Source: Candidatus Heimdallarchaeota archaeon (GTDB lineage Archaea > Asgardarchaeota > Heimdallarchaeia > Hodarchaeales > Hodarchaeaceae). From it: DNA of 16,963 nucleotides. The stretch is from positions 1-16,963 of the forward strand of contig DXJL01000119.1 in the NCBI GenBank assembly GCA_019057635.1. Direction: 5' to 3'. The notes below the pieces were generated by a model that made no database searches, was not told the origin of the DNA, and saw only the letters and a program-made list of their open reading frames with translations. Below, piece by piece: positions 4,664-10,217 of the stretch. Positions within the stretch are counted from its first letter, which is position 1. Every line of letters starts with the position of its first letter. The position numbers and the translations under genes were made by a program.

Positions 4664-4963
4664 TTAGTCATGAACATAATAAGATATGCTGACTAACTGA
4701 TATACAATTGTAAACATAATAACAATTTCTAAAGGAATTGAATTGTAAATTTCTAATGATGGAGTAAGACTTAGTAAAGCAAAAAAACCAACAAAAATAG
4801 TTTCTGGAAATAAGATATGTGAGGCTTGATTGATTTTGGTTACTACTCGCTTATACATATATTGAAAGTAAACATACAAACCTATCAAGCCTAGCGAAGT
4901 ATAAAATATGCTATTCAGCAAAGCAAGTATAGGATCATTTGATTGTACGATAAAAAAAATCAC
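4664..4963 (-). CDS. Small membrane protein (about 3 TM segments), possibly a truncated transporter remnant
   Basis: GTG start overlaps the stop of the upstream small-subunit gene (GTGA); three hydrophobic stretches; the C-terminus may continue in another frame (IMFMTKFVRQLFEK*). Confidence 0.45.
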   Translation of the reverse strand: MIFFIVQSNDPILALLNSIFYTSLGLIGLYVYFQYMYKRVVTKINQASHILFPETIFVGFFALLSLTPSLEIYNSIPLEIVIMFTIVYQLVSISYYVHD

Positions 4964-5487
4964 GTACTTTTCTTTAACCTAGTCTTAGTATATTCAACTA
5001 AACCTCCGGCCTTAAAGATTTGAAGTGCCTGATCATCAAGCTTGGGGAATGAAAACACTTTATCTTTGATCTTAATGACGCCATTGTCAAAATCTACATC
5101 AATTTTTTCTTTAGAGGATAATAGATTTTCCTTATTCTTTGTTACAAAGTCTGAACATTCAGGTGAAATAACGAGAGGAAGCGCCTGGTTAATAGCATTT
5201 CGAAAATATATACGTGCAAAAGATTTCGCAATAATACAACTAATTCCAGCTGCTTGTAAACAGGTAACTGCTTGTTCTCGACTTGAACCAGCTCCAAAAT
5301 TACTGCCAGCCACGATGATATCTCCATCTTCCACTTCTTCAATGAATTTCGAATCATAATCTTCCAGAGCGTGACGAGTCATTTCATCAGGTGATAGCGG
5401 CTCATACGTATACCGTCCTGGGAATATTACATCCGTGTTAATATCATCTTCTGGAAAAATCCATATTTTTTGACTCTTGAAACGCAT
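4960..5487 (-). CDS. Aconitase-family small (swivel) subunit, homoaconitase/LeuD-like (pair 1)
   Basis: DDINTDVIFPGRYTYE, GDIIVAGSNFGAGSSREQA, AKSFARIYFRNAINQ and AGGLVEY; lies 2 bp downstream of the large subunit. Confidence 0.92.
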   Translation of the reverse strand: MRFKSQKIWIFPEDDINTDVIFPGRYTYEPLSPDEMTRHALEDYDSKFIEEVEDGDIIVAGSNFGAGSSREQAVTCLQAAGISCIIAKSFARIYFRNAINQALPLVISPECSDFVTKNKENLLSSKEKIDVDFDNGVIKIKDKVFSFPKLDDQALQIFKAGGLVEYTKTRLKKST

Positions 5488-5489
5488 TT

Positions 5490-6755
5490 TTATTCCTCCT
5501 CTGCAGTTATGTATCCTGCAAGAGCTGATTTCGCAACTGTTGCTGGACTAGCTAAATAGATACCAGTATCTTCTTTACTACCCATACGGCCTTTGAAATT
5601 TCTGTTTGCCGAGGAAATTGCTTTTTCTCCTGATGCAATACATCCACCATATGCTCCTAAACAAGGACCACAGGCAGGAATACCAATTTGGCCTCCAGCA
5701 GCTACAAGAGTCTCAATTATCCCTTCCCGTGTTGCTTGGAGAAGAATCTCTTGTGAAGCTGGATATACTAATAATCGAACATTGGGATGAATGGTTTTAT
5801 CTTTCAAAATATTGGCAGCAATTTCAAGATCATCTAACCGCCCATTTGTACAAGTTCCAATTAAGGCCACATCTATTGTGGTTTTCCCTAATTCTTCTAT
5901 GGGAACTACATTATCCACTTTATGCGGTTTGGCTATACGAGGTGTAAGGTTAGACACCTCCAATTCCAGAGTTTTGATATACTTAGCATCTTCATCTGCA
6001 GTTATTCGATCATATTGAAACTCAAATTGTTTGTTCCATTCATCAGTTACATCATCCACTGGAAAAATGCCTGCTTTGGCACCCATTTCTGCAGTCAGAT
6101 TGCTTAATGTCATCCGTTCACTCATGGATAACTTCTTTACAGAGGAACCATAAAATTCAATGGAATTATACGTTGCTCCTGCAGCTGTTATTTGTCGTAT
6201 AATTTCTAAGATGACATCTTTCGCATAAACACCTTTTGGTAATGAACCATCAAGAATGATCTTGATAGATTCTGGTACTTTCAACCATGTTTCCCCAATA
6301 GCCCATACAGAAGCGGTTTCAGTTCTTCCAATAGGAATACCTGCTGCACCAAATGCACCATGAGTGGTAGTGTGGCTATCACTGCCGAGGATTACAACAT
6401 TAGGAGGAACGTGTCCTTTAGCAGGTAAGACTTCATGACAAATGCCCGTACCACCCTCGTAGAAATATTTAATACCTTGATCTTTAACAAACTTCCTGAT
6501 GACTGTATGGTTTCCCGCTTTTACTGCGTCAGGTGGGGGAACAGCATGATCTAATGCAATAAAGATTTTTTCATGATCCCAAATTTTCCCATTTGGCCCC
6601 ACCATCTTATAAAACGTTTTAGAAATAGCTGCTGAGTTATCATGAGATAATATCCTGTGAGGTGAGACAAAAACAATTTCATTTTCGACAACTCCTTCAG
6701 TCTCTTTACCTGAAGCTTTTGCTAAAATTTTTTGGATTAAAGTTTGACCTACCAT
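5490..6755 (-). CDS. Aconitase-family large subunit, homoaconitase/LeuC-like (pair 1)
   Basis: SHDNS, LDHAVP, GICHEV and GSDSHTTTHGAFG; [4Fe-4S] ligands in GTCTNGR and CGPCLG; ANRNFKGRMG and YLASPATVA. Confidence 0.94.
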   Translation of the reverse strand: MVGQTLIQKILAKASGKETEGVVENEIVFVSPHRILSHDNSAAISKTFYKMVGPNGKIWDHEKIFIALDHAVPPPDAVKAGNHTVIRKFVKDQGIKYFYEGGTGICHEVLPAKGHVPPNVVILGSDSHTTTHGAFGAAGIPIGRTETASVWAIGETWLKVPESIKIILDGSLPKGVYAKDVILEIIRQITAAGATYNSIEFYGSSVKKLSMSERMTLSNLTAEMGAKAGIFPVDDVTDEWNKQFEFQYDRITADEDAKYIKTLELEVSNLTPRIAKPHKVDNVVPIEELGKTTIDVALIGTCTNGRLDDLEIAANILKDKTIHPNVRLLVYPASQEILLQATREGIIETLVAAGGQIGIPACGPCLGAYGGCIASGEKAISSANRNFKGRMGSKEDTGIYLASPATVAKSALAGYITAEEE

Positions 6756-6793
6756 ATCCTTACCTTAAAAAAAGATAAGAAAAGGGTGGAGGT

Positions 6794-7330
6794 TTAAGTA
6801 TTTAGGTTGAAAATTGCTACCATTTCTGAAAGATTATCGGCAAGCTGGGTTAATGTCTGTGCCGAAAACGTCATTTGATTCATAGATGCTGTCTGCTCTT
6901 CAGTTGCAGCAGCTACCTGTTCACTAGATGCACTAAATTCTTCAGATTGCGCGGAAAACCCTTGTAAGGCTTCATGTATATTCGTCATATTACAGCCAAT
7001 ATTCGTAACCATCCGTTCGGTAAATTCAGAGATATCTACAGTATTTGATTTTGTTTCCTCTGCCAGTCTTCTGACATTATCCGCAACTACGGCAAAACCC
7101 CAACTATATTCTCCTGCACGAGCGGCTTCGATTGCAGCATTAAGAGCTAGGATTTTTGTTTGACTCGCGATATCCTCTATGACTTATAAAGTTGTCTCTA
7201 CATCCCTTAACGACTGATCTACTACATCAGACATTTTCTTTATGTCGTCAATTGTTTTAGCAGATGATTCTGACTGATTAGCTGCTCCTCGACTTATTTG
7301 CTGTATAGTCACTGCCATTTCTTTGCTTCT
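6794..7330 (-). pseudogene. Methyl-accepting chemotaxis protein pseudogene (signalling-domain remnant)
   Basis: Minus frame reads ..[88 protein letters not shown]. There is an in-frame TAA at 7184-7186, a degenerate hairpin tip (QTK for QTN, YSWG for YGRG), and no sensor, TM or HAMP region. Confidence 0.88.
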
Positions 7331-7466
7331 TGCAACAGTTACAAGCAAAACTGATCAAATAAATAAAATTCTTAATGAATCTGAAGCTCAGATAACATCC
7401 CAACCGAAACCTGTAGAGGAAACTGAACATTCAGAATCCTTCGACAAACCTGCGAACCAGTGGTAA
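7323..7466 (+). pseudogene. Probable 3' tail of a deleted + strand gene (47 codons)
   Basis: LLLATVTSKTDQINKILNESEAQITSQPKPVEETEHSESFDKPANQW* reads like a natural C-terminus and begins where MCP similarity on the other strand stops. Confidence 0.4.
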
Positions 7467-7635
7467 TTTTGATCTTTTAATTTACCATTTGATAGAGATA
7501 ATTCTTGTTTTTGGTTTTTGTTGGCGAATCAAAATTGAAAATCAATTTTAACTTCGGGGAGGAAAGATTTTACTGTGAAGGTTCACTTTTGGCAAAACGT
7601 CTTTTAAGGTTATCAAATGCTAAAAAGTGGAAAAG

Positions 7636-8889
7636 ATGGGATATACAGTTATTGAAAAAATCATTGCGGATCATACAAGAGAAGTAGTCACCCCAGAAAA
7701 AATAGTTTGGTTAGACATTGATGTACGGTCGGCACGTGATTTTGGTGGTGCAAACGTAGTAAAAAACCTTGAGAAAAATTATCCTGGTGAATCTTATGTA
7801 GCGGATCCCGCTAAAACATTTTTCACATTCGATTGTGTAGTTCCTGCAAACAATCTAGGTTATGCTGAAAATCAACAAATTGCTAGAATATTTGCCCGGA
7901 ATAACTTACCACGGGAAAACCTGTATGATGTGAACGCGGGAATAGGATCTCACGTTATGATAGAAAAAGGAGTAGCAACTCCAAACAGTACTGTTGTGGG
8001 TACTGATTCTCATTTGAATATTCTTGGCGCCATAGGCGCCTTTGGACAGGGAATGGGTGATCAAGATATTGCTTTTACCTTTAAAACAGGTAAAACATGG
8101 TTTGAAGTGCCCTATACTATGCGAGTTACCATTGATGGGGCCCCAGCTAAAAATTCCTTTGCCAAAGATGTTACTTTAGGAGTATTAGAACAATTAGGTT
8201 CAAAAGGAGCTTTGGGCAAATCGGTAGAATTTTATGGGACAACAGTTGATACCTTTGACTTAGCAGGACGTATTACTCTCGCCAGTCAAGTTACAGAAAT
8301 GGGAGGAATTATTGGTTTAATCACACCCGATGATAGAATTATTGATTATTGCAAGAAAAGAAGTGGAAAAGATTTTCCTATTCACAAAGCCGATGCTGAT
8401 GTTAACTACTTAGAGGATATCCATTATGATTTTGAAGGGATAGAACCTAGAATTGCTTTACCACCTAATCCAGCTAATGTAAAACCAGTCGCAGAGATTA
8501 CAGGAATCAAAGTGGATTCTGTTGTCATTGCTTCCTGCACGAATGGTCGATATGAAGATTTTGCGGTAGCTGCGCGAATCCTCAAAGGTAGAAAAGTTCA
8601 TAATGACGTCATGATGAAGATTGTCCCTGCTACACAAGAAGTTTATGGGCAATTGCTAAAGAATGGACTTATTGAATTATTTTATCAATCTGGAGCTATT
8701 ATAAGTAATCCTGGGTGTGCCAGCTGTGCAAGTGGACAAATTGGAATGACAGGTGAAGGAGAAGTGCAAGTTACGACAGGGAATCGAAACTTTGCAGGAA
8801 AACAAGGCAAAGGAGACACTTATCTAGCTTCTCCAGCAACAGCTGCAGCCTGTGCTCTTGCAGGAGAAATAATTGTTCCAGAAATTTGA
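7636..8889 (+). CDS. Aconitase-family large subunit, LeuC/HacA-like with atypical active site (pair 2)
   Basis: MGYTVIEKII start (ATG 7636; GTG 7627 is the alternative), GTDSH, ASCTNGR, PGCASCASG, GNRNFAGKQG and YLASPATAAA; TTTTAAG TATA-like box near 7602. Confidence 0.92.
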   Translation: MGYTVIEKIIADHTREVVTPEKIVWLDIDVRSARDFGGANVVKNLEKNYPGESYVADPAKTFFTFDCVVPANNLGYAENQQIARIFARNNLPRENLYDVNAGIGSHVMIEKGVATPNSTVVGTDSHLNILGAIGAFGQGMGDQDIAFTFKTGKTWFEVPYTMRVTIDGAPAKNSFAKDVTLGVLEQLGSKGALGKSVEFYGTTVDTFDLAGRITLASQVTEMGGIIGLITPDDRIIDYCKKRSGKDFPIHKADADVNYLEDIHYDFEGIEPRIALPPNPANVKPVAEITGIKVDSVVIASCTNGRYEDFAVAARILKGRKVHNDVMMKIVPATQEVYGQLLKNGLIELFYQSGAIISNPGCASCASGQIGMTGEGEVQVTTGNRNFAGKQGKGDTYLASPATAAACALAGEIIVPEI

Positions 8890-8910
8890 AAACGCTAGGA
8901 GTTATGCATT

Positions 8911-9444
8911 ATGAAAAAATCTACAAGTCTGAGTGGCAAAGCAATTGTAATCAAGGATACACAAGGTAAAGGTATCGATGATATCGATACGGACATGATT
9001 TTCCATAACAAACACCTCCATATTACCGATATTAATGAAATGGGTCAACATACATTTGGCAACCTCCCAGGGTGGGAGGAGTTTCCATCAATAGTAACAG
9101 AAAACACAATTTTAATTGTTGGGAAAAATTTTGGGGCAGGATCTTCACGACAGCAAGCTGTTGACTGTTTCAAAGCTTTAGGAGTAATTGTAATTATTGG
9201 CGAATCGTTTGGAGCTATTTATAAACGAAACGCAATCAATTCTGGAATGCCATTAATTTTGGCCCCTGATATTATGACAACTACATTAAATTCTGGTGAT
9301 CAAATGACTATTGACCTAACAACAGGGGGAATTACATCTGAAAAGGAAGATGTTCAATCAAAGCAAGTTACACCATTATCAAAGGTACAACTCGATATCT
9401 ATAAAGCTGGAAACCTGTTCGAGTATGGCAAAAGTCTGGAATGA
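8911..9444 (+). CDS. Aconitase-family small subunit, LeuD/HacB-like (pair 2)
   Basis: DDIDTDMIFHNKHL, VGKNFGAGSSRQQA and ESFGAIYKRNAINSG; AGGAG SD upstream. Confidence 0.9.
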   Translation: MKKSTSLSGKAIVIKDTQGKGIDDIDTDMIFHNKHLHITDINEMGQHTFGNLPGWEEFPSIVTENTILIVGKNFGAGSSRQQAVDCFKALGVIVIIGESFGAIYKRNAINSGMPLILAPDIMTTTLNSGDQMTIDLTTGGITSEKEDVQSKQVTPLSKVQLDIYKAGNLFEYGKSLE

Positions 9445-9455
9445 TAGAATTACAA

Positions 9456-10217
9456 TTACTGGTGTGTGACAGCCTGTAAAAATTGTTTCATCAGTTCTTT
9501 GGGATGGTCAGCTTTTTCCAATACCGAGGAAACAACTATTAAATCTGAGCCTGCTTTTACTAAACCTTCAACTTGCTCTTTAGTTCTAATTCCCCCACCA
9601 GTAATTAACTTAGCTTGTTTTTCATGTGCGAAGACCGATGCACGCTTAACAAGATCTAATCTATTGGCAATTGAAGCAGAAAAATTTCCTGAACCTGCTT
9701 CTATGTAGCACATTTCCCAGTAAGGACGCCATTTTTGTGTTAACTCGTCATATGCTTCATCATCCTTTAGTGCTTTTGCATGGAGTTTTCTGCCAACGGT
9801 GGATTGAGGACTTAAGACTAGGTACCCATATTTCCGATCCTTCGGGAATTGCCCAAAAATCAGACGTCTGGTCCATTTAAACAACCAATGGTATTTCTTT
9901 CCAAGTTTTAGGACAACTTTGATCCGAAAACGATAACAATTTAGTAATGTAGGCATCATAATGTAAGCAGACAAAGAAGAGATTTGGAGCGGATGCCCTG
10001 GAAAGATCACTACTGGGGGAAGAACTAAATCAAGCTTTTTGAGACGTCGAAGGTATTTGTGCACTCCTCTCATGATTTCGTGCGAATCTCCCACCCAAAT
10101 TTCAAGTGGAAGCTGGGAAGGATCTTCATGCTCCATGAGTATTTCAGTTAGAGCTTTATACATCCGTTCTGTTGCGCGACCTTTATTTGGGTCAATAAGC
10201 ACAGCTAATTTCGCGAT
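9456..10217 (-). CDS. Geranylgeranylglyceryl/heptaprenylglyceryl phosphate synthase (GGGPS/PcrB) family protein, divergent
   Basis: LIDPNK, IWVGDS, PVVIFPG, GYLVL..STVG, YIEAGSG, GGGIRT and AGSDLIVV match the family TIM-barrel motifs. Start is GTG 10202 or, more likely, ATC 10217. Confidence 0.85.
   Translation of the reverse strand: MAKLAVLIDPNKGRATERMYKALTEILMEHEDPSQLPLEIWVGDSHEIMRGVHKYLRRLKKLDLVLPPVVIFPGHPLQISSLSAYIMMPTLLNCYRFRIKVVLKLGKKYHWLFKWTRRLIFGQFPKDRKYGYLVLSPQSTVGRKLHAKALKDDEAYDELTQKWRPYWEMCYIEAGSGNFSASIANRLDLVKRASVFAHEKQAKLITGGGIRTKEQVEGLVKAGSDLIVVSSVLEKADHPKELMKQFLQAVTHQ

Follow-up and report, generated by a model that had tools for sequence, protein, structure and literature searches.

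A pair of adjacent genes, which we call Hyd2, lies in a 16,963-nt stretch of DNA from a Candidatus Heimdallarchaeota archaeon (contig DXJL01000119.1; this whole stretch is hereafter the window). The fold and family of the encoded protein are already known: Hyd2 is a split LeuC/HacA-type member of the aconitase superfamily (PF00330 plus PF00694), with a large subunit (Hyd2-L) and a small subunit (Hyd2-S). Aconitase-family enzymes serve as a textbook case of Fe-S catalysis, with a fixed set of about 20 active-site residues; in aconitase, His101 of the Asp-His pair is the general acid. Our alignments indicate that Hyd2 represents a clade of its own within the LeuCD/HacAB branch, uncharacterized and with its active site rebuilt. 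Hyd2 probably handles one step in the citrate-like acid metabolism of anaerobic sediment microbes. More specifically, and with a little less than an even chance of being right, Hyd2 would be an Fe-S hydro-lyase that carries out one half-step on a citrate-type tricarboxylate, the other half being carried out by a canonical LeuCD-type pair, Hyd1.

The two genes of the Hyd2 pair are as follows.
Positions 7636..8889, + strand: Hyd2-L, predicted rewired LeuC/HacA-type hydro-lyase large subunit, 417 amino acids (aa).
Positions 8911..9444, + strand: Hyd2-S, small subunit of the rewired pair, 177 aa.

Both reading frames are intact, and a 21-nt spacer carrying GGAG separates the Hyd2-L stop from the Hyd2-S start. 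The Hyd2-L open reading frame (ORF) opens at a GTG at 7627; the ATG at 7636, where the earlier note on this DNA had placed the start, is the likely one because homologs begin at the Met of MGxT. Hyd2-L matches PF00330 (Aconitase; E 3.2e-75, 254.3 bits) and Hyd2-S matches PF00694 (Aconitase_C; E 1.3e-13, 51.9 bits). The pair also passes broad subfamily models, which assign no function (for Hyd2-L, NF001614 with 415 bits against a cut-off of 385 and TIGR01343 with 404.9 against 385.7; for Hyd2-S, TIGR02087 with 119.7 against 108.95). It fails the equivalog models for isopropylmalate isomerase (TIGR02083, 339.7 against 610.65; TIGR02084, 92.8 against 245.85), homoaconitase (NF040615, 335.1 against 550; NF040604 and NF040625, 92.5 and 100.1 against 230) and aconitase (AcnA TIGR01341, 74.9 against 945; AcnB TIGR00117, 80.8 against 1287.2), as well as a model for a putative fused aconitase (NF005558, 224.5 against 612).

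The best solved relative of both Hyd2 subunits is the isopropylmalate/citramalate isomerase MJ0499/MJ1277 of Methanocaldococcus jannaschii (4KP1, 4NQY, 3VBA), and the homoaconitase HacAB of the same organism (MJ1003/MJ1271; 4KP2, 2PKP) is similar to Hyd2 in fold and architecture. Hyd2-L aligns to 4KP1 and 4KP2 with E-values of 1.1e-89 and 8.5e-79, and Hyd2-S to 2PKP and 3VBA with 3.2e-22 and 8.7e-21. The fold predicted for Hyd2-L by AlphaFold2 (AF2) reached Foldseek template modeling (TM) scores of 0.87-0.88 to 4KP1 and 4KP2, for a model built from a 12-row alignment without the cluster or the small subunit; its predicted local distance difference test score (pLDDT) falls below 50 in loops 35-40, 72-75, 107-121, 126-138 and 367-370.

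To place the residues of Hyd2, we aligned it to 4KP1 and compared the clade profile with pig aconitase in HMMER. The features below, all on the + strand, carry the active-site assignments.
Positions 7732..7749: ARDFGG, residues 36-41; Arg37 for the His/Gln of the H/Q-D motif (aconitase Gln72 position).
Positions 7828..7836: FDC, residues 68-70; Asp69 kept, Cys70 for the general-acid His (aconitase His101).
Positions 7939..7953: GIGSH, residues 105-109; replaces GI/VCH (GVCH in 4KP1).
Positions 8005..8031: DSHLNILGA; equivalents of Asp165/Ser166/His167 kept (DSH, residues 127-129), with T-x-T-H (TCTH) changed to L-N-I-L.
Positions 8281..8307: ASQVTEMGG; Ser220 at the Asn258 position, Glu224 as the Glu262 equivalent, kept.
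Positions 8533..8544: SCTN; first cluster cysteine, C304.
Positions 8716..8727: CASC; second and third cluster cysteines, C364 and C367.
Positions 8782..8808: NRNFAGKQG; equivalents of Asn446/Arg447 kept, Lys392 at the Arg452 position.
Positions 8986..9024: Hyd2-S substrate loop DTDMIFHNKHLHI; His32-Asn33 for the Pro-Gly/Ala of LeuD/HacB.
Positions 9139..9156: GSSRQQ, Hyd2-S residues 77-82; equivalents of Ser642/Ser643/Arg644 kept, Glu changed to Gln81.

By these alignments, the Hyd2 motifs are true replacements at aconitase-family active-site positions rather than chance strings. The motifs FDC, GIGSH, ARDFGG, GSSRQQ and FHNKHLHI (Hyd2-S residues 31-38, positions 9001-9024) all lie where the earlier note had located them, and the cluster cysteines and DSH are kept, as it said; C304, C364 and C367 align with pig aconitase Cys358, Cys421 and Cys424. 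The changes of TCTH to LNIL, of Asn258 to Ser220 and of Arg452 to Lys392 come in addition to those it had listed. Taken with the change of Gln72 to Arg, the Lys and Ser substitutions leave several positions of the carboxylate-binding shell altered.

Two of the motifs that the earlier note had read as rewired may be less altered than it proposed. GIGSH is present, and its His109 lies one residue past the canonical His in an ungapped alignment to 4KP1, but HMMER aligns GIG-S-H with aconitase GII-H through a one-residue insertion, in which case His109 corresponds to His147. The His147 equivalent may thus be retained in Hyd2 as His109. GSSRQQ is likewise present, yet it stands a single Glu-to-Gln change away from the GSSREQ of HacB (2PKP) and of the neighboring canonical small subunit, and its GSSR aligns with the GSSR of 2PKP and 3VBA.

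Hyd2 and MJ0499/MJ1277 have in common the split subunits, the three Cys ligands, DSH, NRNF and the small-subunit SSR. In contrast to MJ0499, Hyd2 replaces the His of HD by Arg, lacks a His in the Asp-His pair, and has GIGSH for GVCH, LNIL for TCTH, Ser for Asn, and Lys for the Arg of GR. The same catalytic-site differences separate Hyd2 from HacAB. The loop that follows DTD also differs, reading MIFHNKHLHIT in Hyd2-S, AIIPGPYLRTT in HacB and AILPARYLVYT in LeuD; aligned to the ILPARYLVYT of MJ1277, the Hyd2-S loop reads IFHNxHLHIT. The hydrophobic specificity loop (YLVY in MJ1277) is not matched by the KHLHIT of Hyd2-S, and the specificity motif YLRT of HacB is absent, with no Arg at its Arg26 position.

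We assembled a large-subunit alignment of 187 rows, made up of the window protein, the best 120 of 8000 scored homologs and 66 sequences taken from loci. The best 120 show 59-98% identity and represent several bacterial phyla as well as Asgard archaea; Hodarchaeales, Heimdallarchaeota and Promethearchaeota metagenome-assembled genomes are named among the best protein matches. R37, D38, F39, G107 and H109 were each found in 186/186 aligned large subunits, N131 and E224 in 187/187, S220 in 186/187 and K392 in 184/185, although the counts for R37 and K392 are independent only as far as the 120 hits go, the 66 locus sequences having been found with patterns on two signature motifs. The cluster cysteines are kept in 185-186 of the 187 rows, the remainder being gaps. 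Small subunits encoded beside Hyd2-type large subunits carry a matching signature in 38/45 cases; across these 38 and the window's own, H32, N33, S78, S79, R80 and SSRQ are each present in 39/39, and after the invariant His-Asn the loop has the consensus x-[HYF]-L-[HA]-[IV]-T. The invariant novelties are thus Arg37, the GxG-x-H loop, Asn131, Ser220 and Lys392-Gln393 in the large subunit and His32-Asn33 and Gln81 in the small one. The clade signature has R-D in place of H/Q-D, lacks the His of the Asp-His pair, and includes GIG[ST]H, DSH-x-N-I-L, Ser at the Asn258 position, Lys at the Arg452 position, and IF-H-N plus SSRQ in the small subunit.

This signature defines a conserved clade rather than a peculiarity of one genome, as the homology search that the earlier note had called for now makes clear. 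A pattern scan with one genome per species found it in at least 570 species genomes from many bacterial and archaeal phyla. We also ranked 1.84 billion cluster representatives in an unbiased, exhaustive HMMER search, and the best 150 comprised 20 of Hyd2 type, 128 canonical and 2 odd sequences. The Hyd2-type representatives all fell within ranks 1-42, the full-length ones were at least 43% identical, and together they make up 20 separate 50%-identity clusters. In a quick maximum-likelihood tree (IQ-TREE) of 86 large subunits, in which the Hyd2 label was set by motif, a branch of length 1.09 with a Shimodaira-Hasegawa-like approximate likelihood ratio test (SH-aLRT) value of 100 parts the Hyd2 rows and their sister from the Hyd1 and LeuC-like rows.

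The replacement of several canonical catalytic residues could, on its own, point to a decaying or inactive LeuCD/HacAB duplicate. The intact frames argue otherwise, as do the ratios of nonsynonymous to synonymous substitution rates (dN/dS) against the orthologs of the closest genome, which are 0.115 for Hyd2-L and 0.236 for Hyd2-S, next to 0.125 and 0.124 for the canonical pair. The same replacements are, moreover, fixed throughout the species genomes and the 20 clusters counted above. These conservation data refute the decay reading, which we regard as having next to no chance of being correct, and they bear out the view of the earlier note that the changes are coordinated and conserved, the residues being fixed across the 187-row alignment. 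The Hyd2 set is a deep clade. What appears to be new here is a subfamily near LeuCD/HacAB that lacks the general-acid His, has a redrawn carboxylate shell and is strongly constrained in hundreds of species from more than 15 phyla.

In Aminicenantes, Anaerolineae, Bipolaricaulota, Cloacimonadota, Thermoplasmatota and Asgard archaea, members of the clade currently carry the annotation of 3-isopropylmalate dehydratase of the leucine pathway, and in a protein atlas the relatives of Hyd2 appear only in generic '3-isopropylmalate dehydratase' clusters. No cultured holder is present among the homolog matches or the 80 named loci described below, which come from metagenome-assembled genomes only. In the full-text literature searched, we found no description of the clade or of the gene module that accompanies it.

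His occupies the Asp-His site in 113/130 representatives that are not of Hyd2 type and in no aligned clade member. Of the 186 members aligned at position 70, 156 have Cys, 26 Leu and 4 Thr, and two cluster representatives have Tyr. As a clade marker, FDC therefore holds for the loss of His and fails for the Cys. Because it varies, Cys70 is not the key new catalytic residue, and the Leu, Thr and Tyr variants rule it out as a general fourth cluster ligand or nucleophile. The clade has lost His101 without fixing a substitute at that position.

The absence of a His101 equivalent from all 186 aligned members raises the question of whether Hyd2 is a hydro-lyase at all. It could instead be a PrpF-like enoate isomerase or an Fe-S sensor or regulator, or the Cys could be a fourth cluster ligand; that a large-subunit-only paralog adjoins AcnB in three Acidobacteriota genomes would sit well with such a role. 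We consider this improbable, given that the equivalents of the base Ser, Arg644, Arg447, Asp165/His167 and Glu262 are invariant, as aconitase-type chemistry would predict. We take Hyd2 to be a putatively active hydro-lyase because the cluster, substrate-binding and serine-base residues are kept. In the mechanism that we propose, a 2-hydroxy-carboxylate would still be bound by the open iron in the [4Fe-4S] cluster of Hyd2, the base would be the small-subunit serine equivalent to Ser642, and the leaving hydroxyl would be protonated by another residue: His109, His129 with Glu224, or small-subunit His32.

Several variants of the clade depart from the two-gene arrangement. Fused large and small subunits of 602-646 aa, with both signatures kept, occur in several bacterial lineages (L042, L066, L067, L083, L087; P0099, P0108, P0115, P0245). 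The paralog of the three Acidobacteriota genomes (L106 9765-13130, L107, L108 4-3576) is 49-50% identical, lies beside a full AcnB and an OPT-family transporter gene, and carries the motifs TARDAGG, GIGTH (in L106), DSHLNILGA and NRNHRGQQG; no small-subunit gene was found near it in L106-L108. In rumen genomes and genomes labeled as spirochaetes (L058, L060-L065), genes for a group-1 glycosyltransferase and a SPOR-domain protein come after a Hyd2-type large subunit. The small subunit that then follows in L060-L065 is of the canonical-partner type (NTDVIFPGKYTYT, GSSREQ), not of the cognate type.

Close to Hyd2 in the window, 0.9 kb away, divergent and on the other strand, lies a canonical pair that the earlier note had overlooked.
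Positions 5490..6755, - strand: Hyd1-L, canonical partner large subunit, 421 aa, all canonical motifs intact.
Positions 4960..5487, - strand: Hyd1-S, canonical partner small subunit, loop NTDVIFPGRYTYE, 175 aa.

Hyd1-L and Hyd1-S match PF00330 and PF00694, respectively. Hyd1-L of the window is 46-61% identical to the partner gene found in the bacterial modules described below, compared with 30-37% to the Hyd2 type, and falls inside the Hyd1 clade of the tree (SH-aLRT 97); the loop NTDVIFPG[KR]YTY is common to the window's Hyd1-S and the module partners. The canonical pair of the window is thus the ortholog of the partner that accompanies the Hyd2 clade elsewhere. Orthologs (at least 56% identity) occur in 9 of 151 sampled Asgard genomes. 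In four of the five carriers of the same genus (G000, G120, G141, G067), the Hyd1 and Hyd2 large-subunit genes are divergent neighbors 0.5-0.9 kb apart, and in the fifth they are on separate contigs.

We took a census of Hyd2 neighborhoods by searching 80 loci from other species with tblastn for six partner genes. At least one partner was found within 10 kb in 40/80 loci. In the subset of 39 loci that span at least 15 kb, Hyd1 was present in 14, Iso_dh in 13, a citryl-CoA-type lyase in 14, the HD protein in 14, a SucD-like protein in 13 and a SucC-like protein in 11. The common gene order is SucC-like, SucD-like, lyase, HD, Hyd1 large and small subunits, Iso_dh, Hyd2 large and small subunits (L009, L048, L080). 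The lyase is a short citrate-synthase-fold protein that scores 270 bits against the citryl-CoA lyase model NF004869 (cut-off 212). The SucC-like ligase beta subunit has a weak match to the citrate-binding domain of ATP-citrate lyase (27.5 bits, cut-off 26.8) and carries a C-terminal ferredoxin-like stretch. The module Iso_dh is below all equivalog cut-offs, the best being methanogen homoisocitrate dehydrogenase AksF2 (347 bits against 540). It keeps the equivalent of Ser113, has an Arg one helical turn on, and shares with Thermus homoisocitrate dehydrogenase, by alignment, an Ile at the Asn115 position of isocitrate dehydrogenase (IDH); the Ser and the nearby Arg would favor a distal carboxylate over an alkyl group.

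A 42%-identical sister of Hyd2 from another Heimdall family sits in one operon, in the order HD, Iso_dh, Hyd2-like, fused Hyd1, SucC-like and a SucD+Ccl fusion. This sister keeps R-D, D-C, GIGSH, DSH-x-NIL, the Ser, the Lys, and IFH and S-T-R-Q-Q in the small subunit. Within the window itself, we found no genes for Iso_dh, the HD protein or citryl-CoA synthetase/lyase. Genes of the methylcitrate cycle were considered as well, but PrpB- or PrpC-type genes were not seen in the neighborhoods, and we set the methylcitrate reading aside.

The company that Hyd2 keeps, a canonical LeuCD-type enzyme and often Iso_dh and citryl-CoA-type enzymes, leads us to infer a two-enzyme isomerization. Hyd1 and Hyd2 would each take one half of the conversion of a hydroxy acid through a cis-enoate to a second hydroxy acid, the likeliest substrates being citrate, cis-aconitate and isocitrate. 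With Iso_dh, the HD protein and the citryl-CoA synthetase/lyase-type enzymes, the module would link acetyl-CoA and oxaloacetate with 2-oxoglutarate. We favor a citrate-type substrate because of the lyase assignment, the weak citrate-binding-domain match of the ligase beta subunit, the distal-carboxylate residues of Iso_dh, and genome content. In one genome that holds the module (G001), a full-length citrate synthase is present, the only aconitase-family genes are Hyd1, Hyd2 and a LeuC beside LeuB, and the module's Iso_dh is the sole one besides that of the LeuC-LeuB cluster. In a sample of 121 Acidobacteriota genomes, AcnA or AcnB was found in 7/21 Hyd2 carriers and 75/100 non-carriers, and neither in 14/21 and 25/100, a contrast that is confounded by kinship and lifestyle; the Hyd2-free group includes the unpublished genomes G178 and G202, and excluding both gives 73/98 with AcnA or AcnB.

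Division of an isomerization between two enzymes is not without parallel. The homoaconitases of Thermus and yeast are described as performing the second half-reaction only and needing aconitase for the first. According to a passage in a structural paper, AcnD only dehydrates 2-methylcitrate, and AcnA/B finishes the step (PMC8184944). Thus in the methylcitrate cycle AcnD (with PrpF) and AcnA/B, two aconitase-family enzymes, share a single isomerization, the logic that we propose for Hyd1 and Hyd2. AcnD and homoaconitase keep the canonical catalytic residues, however, whereas Hyd2 does not, and its split LeuCD-type architecture sets Hyd2 apart from the AcnA type. The CcsAB and Ccl proteins of Hydrogenobacter thermophilus and ATP-citrate lyase belong to the same families as genes that accompany the Hyd2 clade elsewhere. 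The reductive tricarboxylic acid cycle systems described so far use an ordinary aconitase and isocitrate dehydrogenase, in contrast to the two LeuCD-type pairs, the odd Iso_dh and the HD protein of the module.

Hyd2 is not always accompanied, and half of the surveyed loci (40/80) have no partner within 10 kb. The pair stands alone among unrelated genes in Heimdall loci L025 and L029-L031 and in Thermoplasmatota and methanogen-related loci. Such loci would be expected if Hyd2 were a self-sufficient isomerase or dehydratase of some other hydroxy acid, its proximity to Hyd1 reflecting shared regulation or ancestry. The active site, having gained an Arg and lost a small-subunit Glu, is also net more positive and could suit a more anionic substrate. 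At odds with self-sufficiency are the full module, held by about one third of the long-flank loci, and the divergent Hyd1/Hyd2 layout, which is kept within the genus. Furthermore, a fused LeuCD-like gene of 651-689 aa is encoded elsewhere in 4/5 genomes with a stand-alone Hyd2 pair. We think it rather unlikely that Hyd2 works on its own.

Somewhat less unlikely, though still well behind a citrate-type substrate in our estimation, is the same partnership acting on a chiral citrate homolog such as homocitrate/cis-homoaconitate (C7) or citramalate (C5). Going by textbook stereochemistry, enzymes of the citrate-synthase fold and those of the isopropylmalate synthase/homocitrate synthase type would yield opposite configurations at the tertiary alcohol. 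A lyase acting on 2-oxoglutarate or pyruvate would then make the enantiomer that canonical LeuCD/HacAB enzymes could not dehydrate; from this enantiomer Hyd2 would form the shared cis-enoate, which Hyd1 would in turn hydrate for the dehydrogenase. A rearranged Hyd2 active site would be expected here because the opposite tertiary-alcohol enantiomer needs dehydrating. Consistent with this, the full module pairs two different hydratases with a lyase of the Si-citrate-synthase fold, and its Iso_dh is closest to AksF2 and shares the Ile of the Thermus homoisocitrate dehydrogenase. A homolog substrate would further explain why Hyd1 and Hyd2 are retained where an aconitase exists, as in the window's genome. 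On the other hand, the module lyase exceeds the citryl-CoA lyase cut-off, genes for lysine (alpha-aminoadipate) or coenzyme B synthesis do not recur in the 80 neighborhoods, and the Arg of the HacB YLRT motif is absent from the small-subunit loops of both Hyd2 and Hyd1. G001, moreover, seems to have no other aconitase or IDH despite its citrate synthase.

A broader proposal combines these elements, and as a whole we hold it to be unlikely. The acid catalyst would have moved off the Asp-His site, possibly onto small-subunit His32, and Hyd2 would be a stereo-complementary Fe-S dehydratase that opens the tertiary alcohol supplied by the citrate-synthase-fold lyase, with Hyd1 hydrating the product. 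Together with the ATP-coupled reversible ligase/lyase, this would constitute an energy-conserving branch for citrate or 2-oxoacid elongation that has not been described before and that would be widespread among uncultured anaerobes, Asgard archaea among them.

Several observations weigh against a shared half-step on citrate. Citrate is prochiral, and the chemistry alone demands no second dehydratase. Specialization on a half-reaction also leaves the loss of the general acid unexplained, since in aconitase one set of residues serves both halves. The AF2 model, with pLDDT below 50 in exactly the active-site loops, gives the proposed acid no geometric support. The loci that have no module partner within 10 kb count here as well. 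The window's genome encodes two AcnA-size aconitases, a third LeuCD pair, an IDH-like gene and an ATP-citrate-lyase-like pair; with these aconitases and the IDH-like and ATP-citrate-lyase-like genes, the citrate route is already covered. The module Iso_dh has no close ortholog in that genome, where the best matches are 33% and 39% identical. In G163, a separate cluster of citrate synthase, LeuC, LeuD and Iso_dh is present and the Hyd2 gene is alone.

Other citrate-related genes were seen in these genomes. The window's genome encodes, on a further contig (L095, G000:C141), a CitF-like citrate CoA-transferase (5273-6991, - strand; 480 bits against a cut-off of 501) and a 253-aa citryl-CoA-lyase-like protein (8533-9294, + strand; 272.6 bits against 212). 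A GTPase-like gene lies between the two, and the L095 stretch showed neither CitD nor CitE. The third, divergent LeuC/LeuD-type pair of this genome (L096, G000:C179, 3505-9951; 430 and 185 aa) has a very long tree branch; it is preceded by a gene for a 582-aa protein with no family match and followed by genes for a NirB-like flavoprotein and a member of the sulfolactate/malate-dehydrogenase family. The G163 cluster (L109, G163:C44, 2837-6972) comprises a citrate synthase of 382 aa, a LeuC-like protein of 417 aa, a LeuD-like protein of 166 aa and an Iso_dh of 402 aa. Its LeuD-like loop, PGRYFHLRT, has the Arg found in HacB, and no AcnA or AcnB was found in G163, which suggests that this is another LeuCD-type enzyme serving as an aconitase.

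The window has a G+C content of 38%, and the neighbors of Hyd1 and Hyd2 (AFOR, an M42 peptidase, a DUF362 Fe-S protein, a PcrB-like gene, and PHP and DHH phosphoesterases) are in keeping with an anaerobic archaeon from sediment. The spacer between Hyd1 and Hyd2 contains, at 6794-7354 (- strand), a remnant of a methyl-accepting chemotaxis protein signaling domain, which extends over about 185 codons of a single frame, is interrupted by a stop at the 7183/7184 junction and is missing the N-terminal part; in three genomes of the same genus, the spacer is just 0.5-0.6 kb. Downstream and convergent with Hyd2-S, 11 nt away, is a gene for a PcrB/GGGP-synthase-like protein (9456-10202, - strand) that is below every curated cut-off (TIGR01768, 57.6 against 113.25). 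The same size and position are found in the closest relative (L099 4572-5318), and the gene is absent from other Heimdall loci, leaving a mevalonate or lipid link through this neighbor without support. On the far side of Hyd1, a 99-codon hydrophobic ORF (4664-4963, - strand) with no family match overlaps the Hyd1-S stop by 4 nt. The sequence at this position differs in the closest relative, and the ORF may not be a gene.

An Fe-S hydro-lyase that lacks the Asp-His general acid has a remote precedent in AcnX. The structural paper cited above describes an AcnX active site that is rebuilt and keeps the serine base, while protonation of the leaving group falls to some residue that is not His101 (PMC8184944). 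AcnX is distant from Hyd2, with Foldseek TM scores of 0.5-0.58, 12-13% identity and membership in other Pfam families. The functional types named in that part of the 2021 paper are only Acn, AcnD, HACN and IPMI, plus AcnX (PMC8184944). If Hyd2 is one half of a split aconitase or homoaconitase, the metabolic reconstructions of many uncultured anaerobes need correcting, and Hyd2 would show an Fe-S dehydratase working without His101.

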